A stretch of DNA of 64,000 bases, from the NCBI RefSeq assembly GCF_965641715.1, contig NZ_OZ282453.1, one strand, 5' to 3'. This stretch comes from Escherichia coli (GTDB taxonomy: Bacteria; Pseudomonadota; Gammaproteobacteria; Enterobacterales; Enterobacteriaceae). Positions within the stretch are counted from its first letter, which is position 1. Each line of letters starts with the position of its first letter. Shown here in pieces: positions 3,425-32,582 of this stretch. A program made the translations under genes and the position numbers. Below the pieces are notes generated by a model. It worked only from the letters and a program-made list of their open reading frames with translations. It was not told the origin of the DNA and did not search any database.

Positions 3425-3485
3425 ACTCGTCTCCTGAAAATAAAAAAGCCCGCCAGCGGCGGGGGGGGTAAAATCATTAACGACC

Positions 3486-8458: not shown

Positions 8459-9184
8459 TTAAAGCGAGCGGATGCCCACGCTGACCAGATGTTCAGACAG
8501 ATCCGGCTCCGGTTCACCACCATTGACCAGCATCCGGCTCATTGCTGTAAACATCGCAACAGGGCCGTCGATTTTGGCTTCCAGCGTGGATTTATTCGGG
8601 AAGATATTGTCGTTTTTGTCCGGTTTTACCGTAACGTTAGACATCATCCAGTTCATGACCGGATGATTGCTGTGATGGAAACGCCCGGCATAGACCAGTG
8701 ATTCCGTTTCCTTCATGGCCTCTGACAGATTGCGAACCGTCTGCGGAACCTCCACCAGCGGTATCCCTTCTTCAGCCAGTGCCAGGCTGAACTGCATCGC
8801 GCTCCACGGGTCAAATCCCAGCTCCCTGAGGTTTTCACCACCAATCCATTCCAGTAAGTCACTTTTTATCTGAGCATGATCGATAACATCACCATCCGTC
8901 AGAATCAGCTTATCCATCTCCGCCCACTTCCGGTAAAGTTCTGCCTGCTGCCGCGAGCATCGTTCCAGCCGTCCTTCCGGAAGCCAGAATTTAAAATCGG
9001 CATGAACATGCCCGTTATCCGTTCGCCAGAGTTTTGCCGCCGCACAGATATCAATCTTATGAGCAAGGTCAACGCCGACCCACATGGGATACGTTTTCAG
9101 CTCATGTCGTGGGGCAATGTATTCGCACTTCTCCCACTTAATCATGTCCATCCAGGCAGACTCTGCTGTTACCCACACATTCAT
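8459..9184 (-). pseudogene. Terminase large subunit, C-terminal nuclease fragment (gene split by satellite)
   Basis: Aligns to C-terminal half of intact TerL 9715..11376; upstream in-frame sequence runs into the satellite junction. Confidence 0.8.
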
Positions 9185-9714: not shown

Positions 9715-11376
9715 TTACACACCATCAAACGTCGCAAGCCGCTCTTTGTGGCTGTCGCTCATATCGAATGCAAATTCCTCATGCTCTGCCTGGAATGTGC
9801 CAAACGCCATCAGCGCCGCAACGCTCGGGTCTATCTTGTTGGATGATTTTTTCTTGTTCGGCTTGATATTGGCGTTCGCGTCACTCTGCATCACAACATT
9901 ACTCATTGACCAGGCCAGCACCGGATCACCACGATGCACAATCACCTTCCGGTTAACAAAAACTTCGAACGATTTCGCCGCCGGACTGAAACGAAGGTAC
10001 GTTTGCGGGAACGGCTCCACCTCAAATCCCGCCCCCTGTAGCTGTGTTCTCAGGTGAGTGGCGTTCCATGTATCGAAGCCCACCAGCCTGATACTGAAAT
10101 TCTCTGCATCCACCATGATGTCATCACGGATACGGTCATAATCAATGCAGTCACCCGGTGTTGTGCGTATCCAGCCCGCCTTTACCCACTGGCGATAAAT
10201 GGCGCGGTTTTTATTGGCGGGGTTCTGTAACTGAAATTCCGGCAGATAGTGACGGGAAACCAGCATAATCTTTTTACCGACCGGAAAGGCATAGCACACG
10301 CTGGAAATATCGCTGGTTGATGATAAGTCCAGCCCCACGTAGCACTCCTGCCCGTATAAATCCGCCTCCGCGAACGTTCCGGCGCACTCCGCCCATGCAC
10401 CGTTACCCATCCACGGCGTAGCCCCCTGACACCAGATATTGAATCGCTTGGTGAGCATTTCCACCCACTGCGACGGAATACCCCGCGCTTTCTGGATGGT
10501 TGAGGCCAGTTTTTCACGATCGACGGAAACATCGATATTGGGATTCGCCTTTATCCACATCGCCGGATCGTCAACCTCGCTTTCATCATCCAGCTCGTAA
10601 ATCAGTACGAACATGGATTCGTTCACCTCTTCACCATCCAGTATCTGGCAGCAATAGTCGTAGTGTTGTTTACAGGCTGAAACAACGTTGCTCCCCGATG
10701 TGGTGATGGCAAATAATAACCCCTCCGGACGCGCCCCCATTCCCAGTTCAAGCGCGGAATAAACCCCGTTGTCAGGGTGCAGGTGATATTCATCTACAAT
10801 GGCAAGACTCGGGTTTGTACCTTCAATGGTTGCCGCTTTTGCTGCCAGTGGCTTTAACAGGCTGTTGGTTTTCGGGTGTATCACCTTGTGTGCCTGAATA
10901 TTTACCCGCTTTCGTAACGGTCGGGATAAAAGGCACATCTGACGCGCATCATCAAACACGATCCGCGCCTGATCACGACTCACGGCGGCGGTGTAAATAT
11001 CCTGCTGCCCGTTTTCCATAACCAGAAACCAGTTAGCCAGGATAGCGGCGACCGTGGATTTGGCATTTTTTCGCGGTACTTCAATGAATGCGCTGGTGTA
11101 TTTGCGCCGTCCGGTGGCCTTAACCTTAAAGCCCAGGATGCACGCAAAGGCGAACTGCTGCCACGGCTCCAGCTCAATGGGGCTACCGCGCATTGCGCCT
11201 TTTACGTGCGGACACACCCTGGAAAAGGCAATAAACTGCTCCACGACCTCCGGATCGAACGTGTAAAGGGGGTTTTCAAGGTCAGAAAAATACCGTTTAA
11301 CGGCCTGTTTCAGTCGTTTACAGGCCGTAATTTTGCCGTTTTTTACGCCTTCTGCGTACTCATGCCAGGCGGTCAA
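9715..11376 (-). CDS. Terminase large subunit (satellite, intact)
   Basis: 553 aa with ATPase motifs (VPRKNAKST, AIVDEYH) and C-terminal nuclease region. Confidence 0.85.
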   Translation of the reverse strand: MTAWHEYAEGVKNGKITACKRLKQAVKRYFSDLENPLYTFDPEVVEQFIAFSRVCPHVKGAMRGSPIELEPWQQFAFACILGFKVKATGRRKYTSAFIEVPRKNAKSTVAAILANWFLVMENGQQDIYTAAVSRDQARIVFDDARQMCLLSRPLRKRVNIQAHKVIHPKTNSLLKPLAAKAATIEGTNPSLAIVDEYHLHPDNGVYSALELGMGARPEGLLFAITTSGSNVVSACKQHYDYCCQILDGEEVNESMFVLIYELDDESEVDDPAMWIKANPNIDVSVDREKLASTIQKARGIPSQWVEMLTKRFNIWCQGATPWMGNGAWAECAGTFAEADLYGQECYVGLDLSSTSDISSVCYAFPVGKKIMLVSRHYLPEFQLQNPANKNRAIYRQWVKAGWIRTTPGDCIDYDRIRDDIMVDAENFSIRLVGFDTWNATHLRTQLQGAGFEVEPFPQTYLRFSPAAKSFEVFVNRKVIVHRGDPVLAWSMSNVVMQSDANANIKPNKKKSSNKIDPSVAALMAFGTFQAEHEEFAFDMSDSHKERLATFDGV

Positions 11377-11716
11377 GCTCGTCCTCTTCCTCTGTTTCCG
11401 GTGGATTTCTGCGGCGACTTACCGGGTCAAAACCCAGCAAAGAAGCCATTTTGATCATTATTCTTTCAGCGTCAGCCTTTGCGCTCAGGGCGGGGTTTCT
11501 GCTCTCGCTGCCCTGACTGTTAACAATGCTGAACCCGCGCGTGGCAAGGTCTTCGACGGCTTTGCGGTATATGGAGTAGTTAACGCAATACAGCTCCAGA
11601 TTGCTCCAGTCGGCGGGGGTAAGGTCTTCCCGTCCGGAAAGCTGGCGCGATTTTTCCTTCCACTGCCTGACCGCGATTTCATCCAGGTAAGCGGGGGCTT
11701 TTGGTGGTCTTGCCAT
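11360..11716 (-). CDS. Terminase small subunit (satellite)
   Basis: Starts MARPPKAPAYLDE..; overlaps terL start; ORF track extends to 11857. Confidence 0.7.
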   Translation of the reverse strand: MARPPKAPAYLDEIAVRQWKEKSRQLSGREDLTPADWSNLELYCVNYSIYRKAVEDLATRGFSIVNSQGSESRNPALSAKADAERIMIKMASLLGFDPVSRRRNPPETEEEDELDRLA

Positions 11717-12004
11717 GTTCTTTTTTCGCCCAATTATTTTCAAAAAAATTCCCGTGCACAAAAATTTGAGGAGGCGGTCGGTGTCCGGCAGGGACGGTTT
11801 TGTCCTGAAAACCTCCCCCCCCCCCTCTGACGGCCTCACCAGCGATTGCGAAAACATTCCATGACCTCGCGGTCACGGTCGGTTAATCGCTTCGCTGTGG
11901 TGCGTTCTGTGCGCCCTGTCCTGTTGGCTTTGTGCCCTGTCTCCTGTGTCTTCCATAAGTCACGCTGCCTTATCAGTCCACGTATCAGCCTGTTTTGCTC
12001 CTGT

Positions 12005-12445
12005 TCAGTCATCATCGCCATACATCCAGTCGTTACGGTGTGCCGCCCGTTCTTCCTGCTCGCGATACATACCCGCCTTACGGTTCGCTTTCGTGGCTGG
12101 ATCTTCCCGTGTTGTCTTACGGTTATGGCACGTCTGGCACAATGCCTGGTGGTTCCACTCAGGCCAGAAGAGAACATCACCGCCGCCATTGATGGGAATG
12201 ATGTGATCCACCACAAGAGCTGGCGTATAAATCCCCTTAGCCAGACAACGCACGCATAACGGATTTTTGCTCAGGTACAGGGCGCGGTATTTGTCCCACT
12301 GTCGGGAATACCCGCGCGCGCGGCGGTGTCCCCGTCTGGCATCCTCTGCACGCCATGCAGCCCGCCTGTGATCTTCGCACTTGCCGGACTTCACGCGCTT
12401 ATTACAGCCCGGCTCAGTGCATCGCCTTAATGGTTGCCACGGCAT
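12005..12445 (-). CDS. HNH endonuclease (packaging-associated)
   Basis: Cys-rich N-terminus and HNH motif (..DHIIPINGGG..H..C..CH). Confidence 0.8.
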   Translation of the reverse strand: MPWQPLRRCTEPGCNKRVKSGKCEDHRRAAWRAEDARRGHRRARGYSRQWDKYRALYLSKNPLCVRCLAKGIYTPALVVDHIIPINGGGDVLFWPEWNHQALCQTCHNRKTTREDPATKANRKAGMYREQEERAAHRNDWMYGDDD

Positions 12446-12744
12446 CAGTACACCCCTACATCACGATAAACCGACCAGAGCGCAGAAATAGCCATAGGCA
12501 GTTCAGACTGCTCCACAGGTGAAACCGCTTCCCTGTTCTCGTACAGGAAAGCGATGTACATCAGGCAACCAACACGTATTGCCGGGGTAAATTCCAGCCC
12601 GTCTTCAAAACGTTTCCCGATATGCTTCTGGCAGGCTTCCAGCGCCGCATCGGTATACATTTTCAGAAGTTCGCCCTCACCTGAGAAGTCATCAAGGCGA
12701 AGATGTGCCCTGACTTCATCAGGTGTAATTTTTTCTTCACTCAT
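12445..12744 (-). CDS. gp6-like head-tail connector (satellite)
   Basis: MSEEKITPDEVRAHLRLDD.. N-terminus; internal ATG, ORF track start 12825. Confidence 0.55.
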   Translation of the reverse strand: MSEEKITPDEVRAHLRLDDFSGEGELLKMYTDAALEACQKHIGKRFEDGLEFTPAIRVGCLMYIAFLYENREAVSPVEQSELPMAISALWSVYRDVGVY

Positions 12745-13951
12745 CTTTTTCACCTTTAATTTCCACCGTCTGCTTCCATGCCTGGCTGAACTCGTCACCA
12801 CCTTCACGCGGCGGCATCCCCTCACGTTCGCGGGCTTCGTTCGGATTCATGATCCCGTTCTTAATCCCTTTCTCATACGTGGCGTAACGCTCGGTTGGAG
12901 TAGCGCGCAGTAAATCGGCTGAATCAAACTCAACCAGATAACGGGTACCAGGTATGGGAGAAGCCACCAGCAAAGCGGCCTTAATTTGCTGTTCGAAGTT
13001 CGCCAGCCATGGGCGCATTGTCATGGTCAGAAACGCGCGGCTTGCCTCACTGAAATTGCTGTAGGTGCTGTTGCTGTATTCCTGAAGAAAAATCGGCGAC
13101 ACGTTGAACATCCGGGCGATGTCTTCAATGGAGAAGCGACGGGAGGCCAGCCATTCTGCATCCTGGTTACTCATCCCCAGTTGCTTGTAATCCATACCCC
13201 CTTCAAGGATTGGCGTTTTTCCGGCATTTTTCGCCCCCTTGTAGCGTTCCAGGGCGTCTAATGCCTGTTTACCTTTCACGCCGTCCAGCCATTCGCCTGA
13301 CGTGATAATCCCTGCCGCCATCATGCCATCTTTCATAATGCTGGCTCCGTGACGCTGTTGAGCAAGGCCAAGCCCCAGCGCCTCACGGCAAATCGTGACA
13401 GGGGAGCGCCCCAGAAAGCCATCATCCGAGGCATAGCGGAGATGCAGAACTTCTTCCTGCAAATACGTGCGCACCGTTCCTGTATAGGGTTCGGTGATGG
13501 TATAGCGGTATTTGTGTGCGCCAGTGCGTTCCGGTACAACACACCCCGGCGCATAAGGATGAAGTGATTTTGGCTGACCGTCCCGCCCCCACTCAATAAC
13601 CGCATAGGCGTTACCGTTCAGCAGGCAGTGACGCATCATTGTGCGTTTAAACTGGTAAGGTGTCTGGCACGAATTAGGCTGCTCATTCAGCAGAATATCG
13701 ACCGGGTGACTGTCCAGCCATTCCCGCGCCTCCCTGCCCTTGTCATTGCGTACCAGATACAGATAACACGGCATCGTGGCCACCGCCTCAGCGATGACAG
13801 AAACCGCGTTCATCACAGCAGGCAATGATTCAGCCGTCCCGGCAGAAACATATTCTCCGGATCCGGTATTCGGTACGCCGGACAGCGCCAGAAAATCATC
13901 AATGGACAGGTTACGCAGATCGCTTTTTTTACGACTAAAAGGCCACCACAT
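12737..13951 (-). CDS. Portal protein (satellite, HK97 family)
   Basis: Portal-like sequence; ATG at 13951 abuts protease stop; ORF track start 14041. Confidence 0.8.
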   Translation of the reverse strand: MWWPFSRKKSDLRNLSIDDFLALSGVPNTGSGEYVSAGTAESLPAVMNAVSVIAEAVATMPCYLYLVRNDKGREAREWLDSHPVDILLNEQPNSCQTPYQFKRTMMRHCLLNGNAYAVIEWGRDGQPKSLHPYAPGCVVPERTGAHKYRYTITEPYTGTVRTYLQEEVLHLRYASDDGFLGRSPVTICREALGLGLAQQRHGASIMKDGMMAAGIITSGEWLDGVKGKQALDALERYKGAKNAGKTPILEGGMDYKQLGMSNQDAEWLASRRFSIEDIARMFNVSPIFLQEYSNSTYSNFSEASRAFLTMTMRPWLANFEQQIKAALLVASPIPGTRYLVEFDSADLLRATPTERYATYEKGIKNGIMNPNEAREREGMPPREGGDEFSQAWKQTVEIKGEKDE

Positions 13952-13952
13952 A

Positions 13953-14513
13953 TCACAACCCCGCCAGTTCAGCCCAGCGATGACGATTATTTCCTGTCGG
14001 GCGTAATTCAGGGTGCTGTGCAAACAACGAACGGTGGGCAATCTCCACGCCGGATTCGGGATAAGCAGGCATCGACGTTATCGTGATTTCACGGAGTTCT
14101 GCGGCGGTAACAGTGCGCAGATACGGTTTTTGCGCGATATTCCACTCTTCGCATAATGCGCGAAAGCCAAAGCTCATTCCTGTAATGTCGCCACGCTCCA
14201 CCAGCGTAAGCACATCTTTTCCAAGCTGGGTATCAGGCGGTGTCAGTTCAAAACGTAGCCCGGTGTTGTCCTCAGTCAGTACCAGTGTTCCGGATTTGGT
14301 GCGCCCCAGCAGTCGGGTATAGTCATGCTCATACAGGCAGCGCACATCATTACCCGCCGCCAGATAGTCAGCAAAAGCCCCCGGCGTGAACTGTTCGCGG
14401 AATTCGTCCCAGATAATTTCTGAAAGGCTGTTCCAGCGAACGGCATACCCCACCAGCTTTTTATTGCTGGCGGTCAGTTCAGATGTGCGGATTTCAAAAT
14501 CGGTGTTTTTCAT
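13953..14513 (-). CDS. Prohead protease (satellite)
   Basis: 186 aa, ..GYAVRWNS.. region matching HK97 protease pattern. Confidence 0.8.
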   Translation of the reverse strand: MKNTDFEIRTSELTASNKKLVGYAVRWNSLSEIIWDEFREQFTPGAFADYLAAGNDVRCLYEHDYTRLLGRTKSGTLVLTEDNTGLRFELTPPDTQLGKDVLTLVERGDITGMSFGFRALCEEWNIAQKPYLRTVTAAELREITITSMPAYPESGVEIAHRSLFAQHPELRPTGNNRHRWAELAGL

Positions 14514-14567: not shown

Positions 14568-15737
14568 CTAGCCAGCTTTCATTTCCAGAATTTTGATGGC
14601 GTTTGAATCCACCACACCACCGCCCAGATATTTATCCGTGTGGACCTTGTAGAATCCGGGCTCAGTAATGTTGTCCGGTCGGGTGCGAATCCCTGTTACA
14701 TGATCAACGATGAAATAACCACGACTGAAATCGCCAACCGCTAGCGGTGCTTTTCCTGCGCCGATGTCCGGCATGGACTCCAGGCAGAAAACAGGACGAC
14801 CAAGCAACATATCCGGCGCACCTTCTTTAAGGCTGTCGCGCCAGATATAATCGCCATTCTCATTTTTCAGCTTCTGTAGTGTCCCTGCCGTGCCCGAGTT
14901 CATCACCCAGACGGCATTTTTGCGGTATTTCGCTTTCAGCTTGTAGAGAATGTCGATCAGTTCGTCCGCTGTAATGGCGGTTCCACTTGCCGCTACCACT
15001 TTTTCAATGGTGCCAAAAGCGCGGGTTTTGTCACTGGTCGCCGCACGGGTGTAAGCCATGAAGCCTTTCGGCTTGCCGTTACCGTCGCCATTAACAAAAT
15101 CATCCTCTTCGGTGCTGGCGAACGTGTCGGCAATTTCGGAGGATAACCAGCCCAGAATATCCACCTCTGAAAAATCCAGGATTTCCTGCGTGGTTTTCGG
15201 GTAGGCGTAGATCGGATTCAGCTTGATGGTTACACGTTCAATTTTCGGGGTGTTGGTTTCACTACGTGCGCAGCCTTCTGTGCCTCGTCCTACAGTTGCG
15301 CCGCCAGTGGAAACCAGTTTCTGAAACTCATTTGATTTTGCGGTCTTCACGGTCGCGATCACGCGCATAACACTGTCATCCTGTAGCTGGCGCATGACTT
15401 CGCGATCAAGCTCAGGAATTACGGTATATCCGCCATCCCTGCCGCTGTCAGTGCTGGTGGACAGTGATCGCACATCTCCGGTTACGATGTAGTTACGCAA
15501 TTCATCAGATGATAATTTCTGGATGCCCGTTCCTGGCTTGCTGCGTTCTTCATCAGCCACAGACTCGAGGCGGTAAATTTCTGTGTCGAGGGAATCGGCT
15601 TTTGCACGCAGTTCATCAAACTGTTTGCCCTCGTCATCGTTCAGGCTGCGGTTTTCACTGTCGGCTTTTTCCAGCAGGGATCGCATCTGGTTTTTCAGGG
15701 CGGTTTTTTGCTGGCGGAGTTCGATTAATTTCTTCAT
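14568..15737 (-). CDS. Major capsid protein (satellite, HK97 fold)
   Basis: 389 aa, coiled N-terminal segment, homologous architecture to 5176..6381. Confidence 0.85.
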   Translation of the reverse strand: MKKLIELRQQKTALKNQMRSLLEKADSENRSLNDDEGKQFDELRAKADSLDTEIYRLESVADEERSKPGTGIQKLSSDELRNYIVTGDVRSLSTSTDSGRDGGYTVIPELDREVMRQLQDDSVMRVIATVKTAKSNEFQKLVSTGGATVGRGTEGCARSETNTPKIERVTIKLNPIYAYPKTTQEILDFSEVDILGWLSSEIADTFASTEEDDFVNGDGNGKPKGFMAYTRAATSDKTRAFGTIEKVVAASGTAITADELIDILYKLKAKYRKNAVWVMNSGTAGTLQKLKNENGDYIWRDSLKEGAPDMLLGRPVFCLESMPDIGAGKAPLAVGDFSRGYFIVDHVTGIRTRPDNITEPGFYKVHTDKYLGGGVVDSNAIKILEMKAG

Positions 15738-22651: not shown

Positions 22652-22873
22652 TCAGGGTTTCCATTCACCTTTTACCCATTCCAGCACCTCAGATAAGCGC
22701 CAGACTTTTGTTTGTGGGCCAATACATATTTTTCGTGGAAATTTTCCTTCCTTTTCAAGTAACGATCTGTGTCTCCTGCCAAGAGCGGTTAACCATGCAC
22801 ATTCATCCTCCTTAATCATCCTGTCGATTGTTTCATCATTTTCAAGTTCTTCACGCGTAACTATTTGAATCAT
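22652..22873 (-). CDS. AlpA-family regulator / excisionase-like
   Basis: DECAWLTALGRRHRSLLEKEGKFP..VWRLSEVLEWV; start uncertain (22885, 22873 or 22819). Confidence 0.6.
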   Translation of the reverse strand: MIQIVTREELENDETIDRMIKEDECAWLTALGRRHRSLLEKEGKFPRKICIGPQTKVWRLSEVLEWVKGEWKP

Positions 22874-24074
22874 TACTGTCACCACTAATTTGCTTATTCA
22901 GATAGTCGTACCACCAGTTCATAGCTTCTTTTTTTCTGTCCATATACTGGCTTCTGTTATAAACCCCGGCAACACCGCCTAATGTGTGCCCAAGCAACTG
23001 TTCAACCACATTATGTTCAAAACCATGATCACTTAGTTTTGTGGCAAACACTCTTCGCATATCATGCGCCGTCCATTTCTCCGAGTGTTTCATCCTTTTC
23101 CATGTCTTACCGATAGTTACGCTTGCCGTACACTGACGCATATCAAACCCAATCACATTTTCTTTGTTACCTGTTATTTTTTTTAACGTAACTAACCAGT
23201 TAAACATGCCATCAGGAATCGGTCTGATTATTTCCCTGCCATTTTTGCTATGATCAGCGGGAACGCGCCATAATTTCTTATCAAAATCCCACTCTACCCA
23301 GGACGACAGTAATACTTCTGACAGTCGACAACCAAAAACTACCAGGAAACGTAAAATAATTCGGTTTTCATATGATAATTCGTGATTGTCATAATCAGTA
23401 TTAATACTTCGCCATAAATCTCTGATTTCATCATCTGTTAAAACCCTGCTTCTTCGCGCAGACTTTTTTCCCACATCACAGACCTCAAGATCATCAATTT
23501 CATGACTAATCGCGTATTTTCTTACCCTACAAAATTTAAGCGCCTGTTTTGATATACGCAACAAAGCTCCGGCCTGTACAGGTGCTACTTTTTTTATTTT
23601 GTCAAAACACTTAATCCACATAGATATAGAGCAATCACTAAGTGGTACATGACCAATCACCGGATAAATATGTTTACCAAAGCACTGCCTGATATGTTCT
23701 GCTCCCCTACGCTTATCCATTGCATAATTATCAAGCCAGTATTCAAGTGCCTCACGAACGGTAACAGGTTGCAAGGTGGCTTCCCGTTCAATTTTTATCT
23801 GAATCCGTGGATCTCTGCCCTCCGCAAGCCAGGTTCGACACTGATCGCGCATCTCTCTCGCTGATTTGAGACTCAGATCAGGATATTTTCCAAGTGTCAG
23901 CCAGATGGGCGCGGTTCCCCTTCCCGCCAGTCTGTAAAAGAAAACAAAACTAACACATCCGTATTTACTGACCCGTACCGAAAGCCCGTTACCATCAGCG
24001 ATGGTTTCCTGCCTCTCACTCCTGCGCCCAAGCAGGGAACGAAGTTTTTTATCGCTCAGTTTGTTTAGCGCCAT
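22851..24074 (-). CDS. Tyrosine integrase, P4 type (satellite)
   Basis: MALNKLSDKKLRSL.. N-terminus, C-terminal HxxR..Y catalytic region; ORF track start 24110. Confidence 0.85.
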   Translation of the reverse strand: MALNKLSDKKLRSLLGRRSERQETIADGNGLSVRVSKYGCVSFVFFYRLAGRGTAPIWLTLGKYPDLSLKSAREMRDQCRTWLAEGRDPRIQIKIEREATLQPVTVREALEYWLDNYAMDKRRGAEHIRQCFGKHIYPVIGHVPLSDCSISMWIKCFDKIKKVAPVQAGALLRISKQALKFCRVRKYAISHEIDDLEVCDVGKKSARRSRVLTDDEIRDLWRSINTDYDNHELSYENRIILRFLVVFGCRLSEVLLSSWVEWDFDKKLWRVPADHSKNGREIIRPIPDGMFNWLVTLKKITGNKENVIGFDMRQCTASVTIGKTWKRMKHSEKWTAHDMRRVFATKLSDHGFEHNVVEQLLGHTLGGVAGVYNRSQYMDRKKEAMNWWYDYLNKQISGDSNDSNSYA

Positions 24075-24094
24075 GTGATTTATAACCCGTTTTT

Positions 24095-24115
24095 GCAATA
24101 CACAGTGCAATACAC
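24095..24115. repeat. Tandem GCAATACAC motifs, candidate integrase arm-type sites (right arm)
   Basis: gcaatacacagtgcaatacac just upstream of int; copy at 9271..9291. Confidence 0.4.
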
Positions 24116-24245
24116 AAATGATGAAAACAGCCAGAACCTTCCAGAAAAAACAAAAACGACGAACAAGAAAAAATCTTTTTCTTTCATTTGGTTACTAAAA
24201 AAATCAGGACAGGTCGCACTGTTGTTACGGCGTGATGTTACTTTC

Positions 24246-24259
24246 TTTGTGAAAAAATT
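24246..24259. repeat. Satellite junction core, right copy (tttgtgaaaaaatt)
   Basis: First 7 bp identical to 9189..9195; encodes ..FTK of the terL N-terminal fragment. Confidence 0.55.
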
Positions 24260-25273
24260 CACCCGCGCCGAGACCTGCTCCTTCGCCTTTTTCGCCAGAC
24301 GACGCAGATCATCCCAGCGTTTACAGATGCCCAGGCCGGGATTCGCTTTCTGCCAGACCGTTTCATCAAACGGATCATCTCCCTCATCGAGCGTGTAAAT
24401 GATCGCAAAGTAAGAGTCGTCTTTTACCGCGCCCTCCACGTCACTGTTATAGCCACGCAATACCTTAATGGCGTAATCACGCTGCTCGTAACAAATCCCT
24501 TCCTTGTTAAACCCTGCCGTGGTGATACCAAATAAAAGGGACTGCAGACGGGCACCGGTTGCCGTTTCCAGAACGTCCCACACGTCACGGGTTTTATGTG
24601 CATGCAGCTCATCAATAATGGCGCAGTGGATGTTCAGACCGTCCAGGTTGTTTGCATCCGAGGAAAGCGGTTCAAATTTTGATGCGCTCTGCTCCTGGTA
24701 GATCGCCAGCTTGTTGAAATCAAATAACCGCCCGAGTGTCGACCGGGCTTTTCTGACCATATTTTTGGCGTCTTCAAACACGATTCTGGCCTGGTCACGC
24801 GTGGTTGCGGCTGAATACACCTCAGCTCCACCTTCACCATCTGCCCCCGTCATATACAGGCCGATACCCGATGACAGAGTTGATTTTGCGTTTTTACGGG
24901 CGACTTCGTTGTACGCCGTCCGGAACCGGCGCACCATCACCGGACGTCCGCTGCCATCGCTGCGCATGACAACTTCCCCGGTCTCTTCATTCACCAGCGG
25001 AATGACAAAACCAAAAATATTAATGAGGATAAATACATGCCAGTCCATCAACTCAATGGGCTGGCCTGCCAGCGCCCCTTTTACATGAGGCACAAATTTG
25101 TAGAAATTCAGGATGTGCTGCGCACGGGGTTCACTGAAATAAATCCCCCGCTCTTCGCCGTACTTCAGATCATCAAGAAAACGCTGGCAGGCCAGACGGA
25201 CAAATTCCCCAGCAACAATTTCTCCTGCAACAACACGTTCGGCGTAGCGGATCCCGTCAGCCACTTTTGCCAT
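24253..25273 (-). pseudogene. Terminase large subunit, N-terminal ATPase fragment (gene split by satellite)
   Basis: ORF 24080..25273: first ~340 aa align to TerL N-terminus (VARKNAKST, AIIDELH), then 54 unrelated residues read into the satellite. Confidence 0.8.
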
Positions 25274-25755: not shown

Positions 25756-25903
25756 AATCGGTTTTACCTATCAATCATTTAATCACATTCCCAAAAAAAA
25801 GTTTTCGAACCTGCGGCGATGCGAGGAAAGGTCAGGCGGCGGTACTGAGCAGCCAGGGCTGCAGAGATTTGACCCGCCCCTCCCCTACAGATGGGAACTG
25901 TTA

Positions 25904-32449: not shown

Positions 32450-32582
32450 TCCTTAAATATAGCAACTAAAACAAACAACGATTTAACAGTAGGAATTGTT
32501 TTTATAACATATGAACGGTGCAAGATCTATCCAGATGAAGCCTCCCCTCACCCCCCCCGTCTCATTACATGCATTTACTATC

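Follow-up and report, generated by a model that had tools for sequence, protein, structure and literature searches.

A G11 tract upstream of terS in an Escherichia coli phage satellite is probably a one-base variant of the conserved G-rich box of an HK97-type cos region

The longest homopolymer in the 64,000 nucleotides of Escherichia coli DNA analysed here (referred to as the window in the following) is a run of eleven G upstream of the terS gene of a phage satellite. Comparison with related elements indicates that this run is probably a G-rich box lying upstream of the cut in an HK97-type cos site of the satellite itself, altered by a private T-to-G substitution. For the window itself this result is mostly deflationary, as the striking homopolymer would be a one-base variant of a fixed motif and not a switch. 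The feature belongs to the known HK97-type cos regions, and its interest, which is modest, lies in the conserved G-box rather than in the homopolymer. As a by-product, a concrete map of a cf-PICI (capsid-forming PICI) cos region was obtained; neither such a map nor any mention of a G-box is contained in the cf-PICI papers examined.

The initial annotation had read twelve C at 11814..11825 of the plus strand. The homopolymer is there, yet it counts eleven C (G11 on the coding minus strand), as position 11814 is a T. The next G or C runs of the window are 8 nt long, and the chance expectation for a C11 or G11 run, estimated from base composition, is about 0.03-0.04. Against a reading of the tract as a special box it counts that G-rich 13-mers are not exceedingly rare, since four sites of the window hold at least 11 G or C within 13 nt, compared with 1.4 in shuffles. 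The position of the tract, given earlier as roughly 100 nt upstream of the terS start, agrees with the measured 99-109 nt before the ATG at 11716. The interval between the HNH and terS genes (11717..12004), which had been regarded as intergenic, is truly so at 11717..11835 only, the remainder being occupied by an ORF of 61 aa (Table 1).

The satellite resembles the capsid-forming PICIs of the EcCIEDL933 family, with which it shares the order capsid, protease, portal, adaptor, HNH, terS and terL, an integrase, a comparable size (~15 kb) and the families of its TerS and HNH proteins; it differs from them in that the present copy lies inside the terL gene of a prophage. Published descriptions of cf-PICIs give a size of ~10-18 kb, an integrase, a replication module, a capsid-to-TerL module and an absence of tail and lysis genes. 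The ORF order across 9.7-24.1 kb and the integrase of the satellite correspond to this description, and a DUF927 protein is annotated in its relatives (RefSeq). Likewise, the tract region has the placement of an HK97-type cos site, i.e. between an HNH gene and a Terminase_4/P27 terS gene that is followed by terL. A longer terS ORF of 165 aa (ATG at 11857), inside whose coding sequence the tract would fall, was rejected, since in Klebsiella-type relatives this frame is closed by a TAA two codons ahead of the ATG of the 118-aa form, which both RefSeq and Pfam favour.

Two further observations concern the surroundings of the site. The small ORF between HNH and the cos boxes (phrog_3173) shares 17 nt with the HNH gene at the stop of the latter. 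Satellites of both the E. coli and the Klebsiella type have the conserved C terminus (S/T)(D/E)RDRE..ECFRNR, and the cf-PICI module descriptions examined make no mention of this ORF. The satellite as a whole (~9.2-24.1 kb) is inserted in the prophage terL, which it splits into 8459..9184 and 24080..25273 (minus strand); the N-terminal part of this gene, which the satellite integrase adjoins, comprises the ATPase domain and positions 2-68 of the nuclease profile, and the C-terminal part comprises positions 64-283. As long as the satellite is integrated, the terL of the prophage, a putative helper, is interrupted. This arrangement is shown by 32 complete E. coli genomes as well, and at least eight IMG/VR contigs carry both TerS genes ~14 kb apart.

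Table 1. Coordinates of the features discussed in the text (positions in the window; roles of the cos boxes are predictions from comparison).
Feature	Position	Strand	Remarks
Capsid	15737..14568	-	
Protease	14513..13953	-	
Portal	14041..12737	-	
Head-tail adaptor	12825..12445	-	Pfam and PHROGs
HNH endonuclease of packaging module	12005..12445	-	PF01844; Pfam and PHROGs
Small ORF, 61 aa, phrog_3173	11836..12021	-	No Pfam match; annotated in RefSeq E. coli genomes and LR881103
G11 run (C11 on plus strand)	11815..11825	-	Putative G-rich box of satellite cos region; relatives read GGGGGTGGGGG
Single position making the homopolymer	11820	-	G here (C on plus strand); T (A on plus strand) in relatives
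Box GGTTTTCAGGAC	11802..11813	-	Directly after G-box; nearly invariant across satellite lineage
22-nt spacer	11780..11801	-	Sequence differs by sub-lineage, length kept
C-rich box GACCGCCTCCTC (predicted cut)	11768..11779	-	Homologous to right end of HK97 (GACCGCCGCCAAA) and phi644-2 (GACCGCCCGCTTC)
Box GTGCACGGGAATTTTTTTGAAAATAA	11734..11759	-	T7 tract at 11742..11748; putative counterpart of HK97 TerS binding site +15..+29
terS, 118 aa, Terminase_4 / P27 family	11360..11716	-	PF05119; Pfam and PHROGs
terL of satellite	9715..11376	-	
Integrase of satellite	24110..22851	-	PF00589
Prophage G-rich box GGGGAGGGGCGGG	25873..25885	-	Homologous to satellite G-box
Prophage 13-nt box TACCGCCGCCTGA	25844..25832	-	28 nt after G-box; ends 41 nt after G-box
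Prophage T8 tract	25800..25793	-	After TACCGCCGCCTGA

Judged from its relatives, the homopolymer is a private T-to-G change (A-to-C on the plus strand) in a motif of essentially fixed length. An exact-flank scan of IMG/VR retrieved 14 loci, all of which carry C5AC5 (CCCCCACCCCC), as do all six contigs from a metagenome scan; the same flanks had no match among genome contigs, and blastn of the interval against the phage collection gave just two partial matches. A wider set of 80 IMG/VR loci, collected via the satellite TerS (84-100% identity) and including the 14 just mentioned, keeps the interrupting T in 80/80. On the coding strand the block reads G5TG5 in 48 of these loci, G4TG5 in 27, G4TG6 in four and G3TG5 in one. 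Among 5,426 complete E. coli genomes, 150 contain the 83-nt region around the tract, and none of these 150 matches the C11 version exactly. The best of these matches are exactly one base off, and 58 of the 60 matches listed have no indel across the 83-nt query. The T was present in three of four E. coli genomes inspected individually: the closest genome, TUM1881 (99.8% over 1.2 kb), and strain 042 carry C5AC5, while two whole-genome-shotgun chromosome assemblies, PEC240 and 1424KP, have C10 and A-C5-A-C6, respectively. The comparison of tract length across relatives, which had been proposed as a check for length variation, therefore finds it essentially fixed (11 nt in 14/14, 6/6 and 58/60 of the matches listed).

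The block is accompanied by a series of further boxes. On the coding strand, the phrog_3173 stop codon is followed by 10 nt, the G-box (11825..11815), GGTTTTCAGGAC, the spacer, the C-rich box, the A/T-tract box and finally terS. Across the satellite sequences compared, the G-block is conserved, and so are its position and spacing: from the G-box to CTCAAATTTTT there are 44 nt in 73 loci and 43 nt in six, with a variable spacer sequence in between. A conservation profile of the region brings out these boxes as well. The C-rich box has the consensus CACC-GACCGCC(T/C)CCTC in the satellite lineage and aligns with the mapped ends of HK97 (GACCGCCGCCAAA, with G as the first base beyond the cut) and of the Burkholderia phage phi644-2 (GACCGCCCGCTTC, likewise followed by G); next to it stands AAATTTTT, at the place where phi644-2 continues beyond its cut with GTCAAATTTT.

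For HK97, both position +1 and the TerS site at +15..+29 have been described (PMC11331095). The bases named for the TerS complex, i.e. T16, the C:G pair at 21 and the A:T pairs at 24-29 (PMC11331095), fit the numbering of the deposited genome, so that position 1 of this record corresponds to +1 of cos cleavage; the record ends with GGGCAGGGGGGGGG ATCAAATCTTCAAAACCTTTGCCCCAAATGACCGCCGCCAAA and starts with GTTTGAATTTAACGCTAACCCGATTTTTTTAG. If the cut of the satellite is set 23 nt before the T-tract, as in HK97, GCACGGGAATTTTTT falls at +15..+29. Either this placement of the T-tract or the alignment of the GACCGCC and TCAAATTTT boxes with HK97 and phi644-2 leads to a predicted top-strand cut at about 11773-11770, 42-44 nt after the G-box.

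The satellite has in common with HK97 the position of the site between HNH and terS, a Terminase_4 TerS, an HNH protein, a TerL and a portal of HK97 type, as well as the order of G-rich block, ~42-44 nt and C-rich, predicted cut box (GACCGCC...), followed downstream by a candidate TerS box with a G:C pair and a T-tract. Differences lie in the G-box itself (G5TG5, here G11, versus G3CAG9 in HK97) and in TerS, which is ~40 aa shorter at the N terminus in the satellite. Furthermore, cos of HK97 has a 10-nt 3' overhang, depends on the HNH protein gp74 and is bound by the TerS gp1 at +15..+29, whereas the cut of the satellite is a prediction. Finally, the G-box is followed by GGTTTTCAGGAC in the satellite and by TCAAATCT in phages, and the TerS box differs as well, which fits the mutually exclusive packaging reported for cf-PICIs.

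A G-rich block upstream of the cut is a feature that we propose here and not an established criterion for such sites, but it recurs at a similar distance (43-44 nt in the satellite lineage) in phages and satellites of enterobacteria as well as in actinobacteriophages. In phages whose deposited records begin and stop at the physical termini, the distance between block and right end is 42 nt in HK97 (a G9 run), in the Burkholderia phages phi644-2 (GGGGAGGGGGG) and phi1026b (a block of the phi644-2 type) and in Gordonia phage Eviarto (AGGGGGGCGGG), 43 nt in Mycobacterium phage 244 (GTCAGAGGGGGTGGGGGTGGTT) and 40 nt in Edwardsiella phage EPP-1 (AGAGGGTAGGGGGTGGG). The 22 bases GTCAGAGGGGGTGGGGGTGGTT of phage 244 are identical to the block of one E. 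coli satellite variant, and in both they lie 43-44 nt from the right end, which is real in the phage and predicted in the satellite. There are counter-examples: the spacing is 25 nt in Gordonia phage Tayonia, in which 17 nt (CCCCGGGGGCGGCGCCC) are missing relative to Eviarto, and ~36-38 nt in Arthrobacter phage Karkharias, and no G-block was found at the right end of Lactococcus phage BK5-T. The record of SfII was unusable for the comparison of ends, because its start is arbitrary and HNH runs to the end of the record.

As an alignment of TerS across six lineages proved too divergent, single lineages were scanned instead. In the ST64B lineage, represented by 72 distinct upstream sequences, at least 10 G in 13 nt occur at a fixed distance in 63 of 64 anchored loci. 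The 75 loci of the HK97 lineage have a true G homopolymer of 4-11 nt (6-11 nt in 74 of them), with lengths of 4 (one locus), 6 (5), 7 (23), 8 (30), 9 (11), 10 (2) and 11 nt (3); from its 3' edge to the cut there are 42 nt in 60 loci, 40 nt in 13 and 44 nt in two. Within this lineage the length of the poly-G varies even among near-identical relatives, through slippage or through homopolymer sequencing noise, while the 42 nt to the cut are nearly invariant. Where the run is unbroken, slippage or apparent slippage looks to shift only the non-conserved upstream flank, i.e. to be tolerated and not used. Since the spacing to the cut is unchanged by these differences in length, G11 is probably tolerated in the satellite, too; on the other side, the invariance of the T in its relatives suggests that the allele of the window may not be fully neutral. 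The flanking prophage had been said to have no homopolymer in the equivalent interval, which is correct, yet a homologous G-rich block (GGGGAGGGGCGGG) is present there. Its 80 IMG/VR relatives keep a block of the GGGGAGGGGCGGG type, in which the interruptions shift position. The T-tract of the predicted TerS-binding box, with T6 to T9, is a more variable homopolymer in this prophage lineage than the G-box.

A further hint at the location of the ends comes from vB_KppS-Ant (LR881103), an induced satellite; the 16.5-kb sequence was deposited as a 'phage' and is a cf-PICI. Its record stops 13 nt after the G-box and resumes 22 nt before terS, and it thereby lacks exactly 69 nt that near-identical IMG/VR relatives (three loci) possess. 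The predicted cut divides this gap into 31 and 38 nt. Such a pattern would be expected from loss of terminal sequence off a linear molecule, and it is circumstantial evidence for the ends. That the tract might be part of the cos recognition site had been offered at the outset as an alternative, and the comparison with HK97 and distant phages supports it, in the form of a conserved box. An invariant length together with DNA ends mapping elsewhere had been named as what would speak against the initial interpretation; the length is indeed essentially invariant, while the ends, predicted by homology, would lie ~44 nt outside the tract.

The reading first suggested for the tract was that slipped-strand mutation makes it phase-variable. 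A contingency locus of this kind, in which G11/C11 slips in length and toggles satellite packaging or terS expression, is in our view extremely improbable. The likeness to homopolymeric (poly-G/C) contingency loci consists in an uninterrupted run of 11 nt, which is long enough for slippage but exists in this window only: the odd assembly PEC240 aside, a T breaks the run in every other relative examined (G5TG5 or G4TG5), so the lineage offers no homopolymer to slip, and C11 was found in 0/150 E. coli genomes. One-base changes in two E. coli assemblies (PEC240 and 1424KP) and the varying G-run length of the HK97 lineage could be taken as signs of slippage, although the latter leaves the distance to the cut intact, which argues for tolerance rather than a switch. 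Nor does the placement correspond to that of contingency loci. The tract is situated within an operon, 99 nt before the terS start and outside any ORF and any promoter spacer, and a scan of 11500-12200 placed neither a promoter nor a terminator on it, so that a change in length could not shift a reading frame or a promoter spacer. The longer terS frame is not conserved, as in Klebsiella-type relatives it is interrupted by a stop codon located after the block and ahead of the terS ATG. A different doubt concerns the base at 11820 itself, where the true genome sequence might be G5TG5, as in the relatives, and the G an error of base calling or assembly. This is unlikely, but it has points in its favour: the allele occurs only once among more than 240 related sequences, the two further odd alleles stem from whole-genome-shotgun chromosome assemblies, and a T between G5 runs is a context prone to sequence-specific miscalls. 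However, the element differs from all complete E. coli genomes elsewhere, too (none is identical, the best reaching 97.8-98.5% identity over 16.9 kb), and it therefore represents a lineage of its own, for which a true SNP is plausible. An error at this single base would leave the identity of the element unchanged.

Alternatively, the block could act at the level of RNA, with the G-box pairing with the C-rich box 35-45 nt downstream, or forming a G-quadruplex, and thereby modulating terS translation or mRNA stability. The G-box (region 11768..11828, minus strand) is imperfectly complementary to the C-rich cut box ~35 nt downstream, and a comparable complementarity of G-block and C-box exists in ST64B (GGGGCGGG ... 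CCCGCCCC). RNAalifold, applied to 14 diverse satellite sequences, returned the helix between the two boxes as the sole consensus helix (-13 kcal/mol); with compensatory changes in 0/11 predicted pairs, this structure was rejected as evidence. Low-complexity G-rich and C-rich blocks pair trivially. The ribosome-binding region of terS lies ~50 nt past the helix, no terminator is located at the tract, and the block has only two or three G-runs as regards a quadruplex. Moreover, the block of mycobacteriophage 244 keeps its distance to the DNA end although terS is more than 1 kb away. An action through RNA is in our view very unlikely.

The reading as a cos element leads to a plausible course of events. 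In HK97, TerS binds downstream of the cut, TerL coming from upstream stalls at the site and cuts, and the HNH protein stimulates cleavage. By analogy, the TerS of the satellite would bind the T-tract box, and TerL together with HNH would cut in the C-rich box, ~43-44 bp (roughly four helical turns) past the G-box. This would make the G-box the last conserved sequence to traverse the motor ahead of the cut, and it may for this reason be either a cosQ-like element for positioning or termination, or a site contacted by HNH, TerL or the portal. The homopolymer state would have no switching role, and the difference between satellite and phage in the box beside the G-box may contribute to exclusive packaging.

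Among these functions, a cosQ-like role in positioning or termination is our best guess. In phage lambda, cosQ, too, is short and conserved, and it lies a few helical turns before the nick site, towards the end of the DNA that is packaged last. It is needed for bottom-strand nicking at termination, and portal mutations suppress cosQ defects; this role and its suppression by the portal were reportedly worked out by Cue and Feiss and by Wieczorek et al. Unlike the HK97-type phages, lambda has 5' overhangs and manages without an HNH protein. Similarity in sequence between cosQ and the G-box is not to be expected, and the analogy would be a functional one, in which only the position upstream of the cut is shared. 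We found no published function or description of a G-rich or cosQ-like element in HK97-type cos in the literature covered, and an earlier description may exist elsewhere.

Tentatively, and with considerable doubt, the idea may be extended beyond the satellite: the G-rich block ~42 bp upstream of the cut might be a general cis-element of HNH-dependent HK97-type cos sites, a cosQ-like signal which HNH, TerL or the portal would read in order to place the terminal cut or set it off, with the adjacent box (GGTTTTCAGGAC in satellites, TCAAATCT in phages) aiding mutually exclusive packaging. The map outlined above shows that HK97-type cos sites have a G-rich box in common, which lies upstream of the cut and keeps a fixed distance to it, with Tayonia, Karkharias and BK5-T as counter-examples. 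Both the role of the box and the specificity of satellite versus phage are directly accessible in the HK97 in vitro packaging and cos-cleavage system, which uses a -312..+472 fragment.

Two other G-rich sites of the window deserve mention. A second strong G-block, GGGGGGGGTGAGGGGAGG, is located at 32541..32558 (minus strand) in the early region of the prophage, between two ORFs without Pfam matches, and no cos-like boxes were found after it. A G8 run at 3461..3468 forms part of a GC-rich hairpin (3445..3470), which is followed by a T-run on the minus strand and looks like an intrinsic terminator between tail genes.
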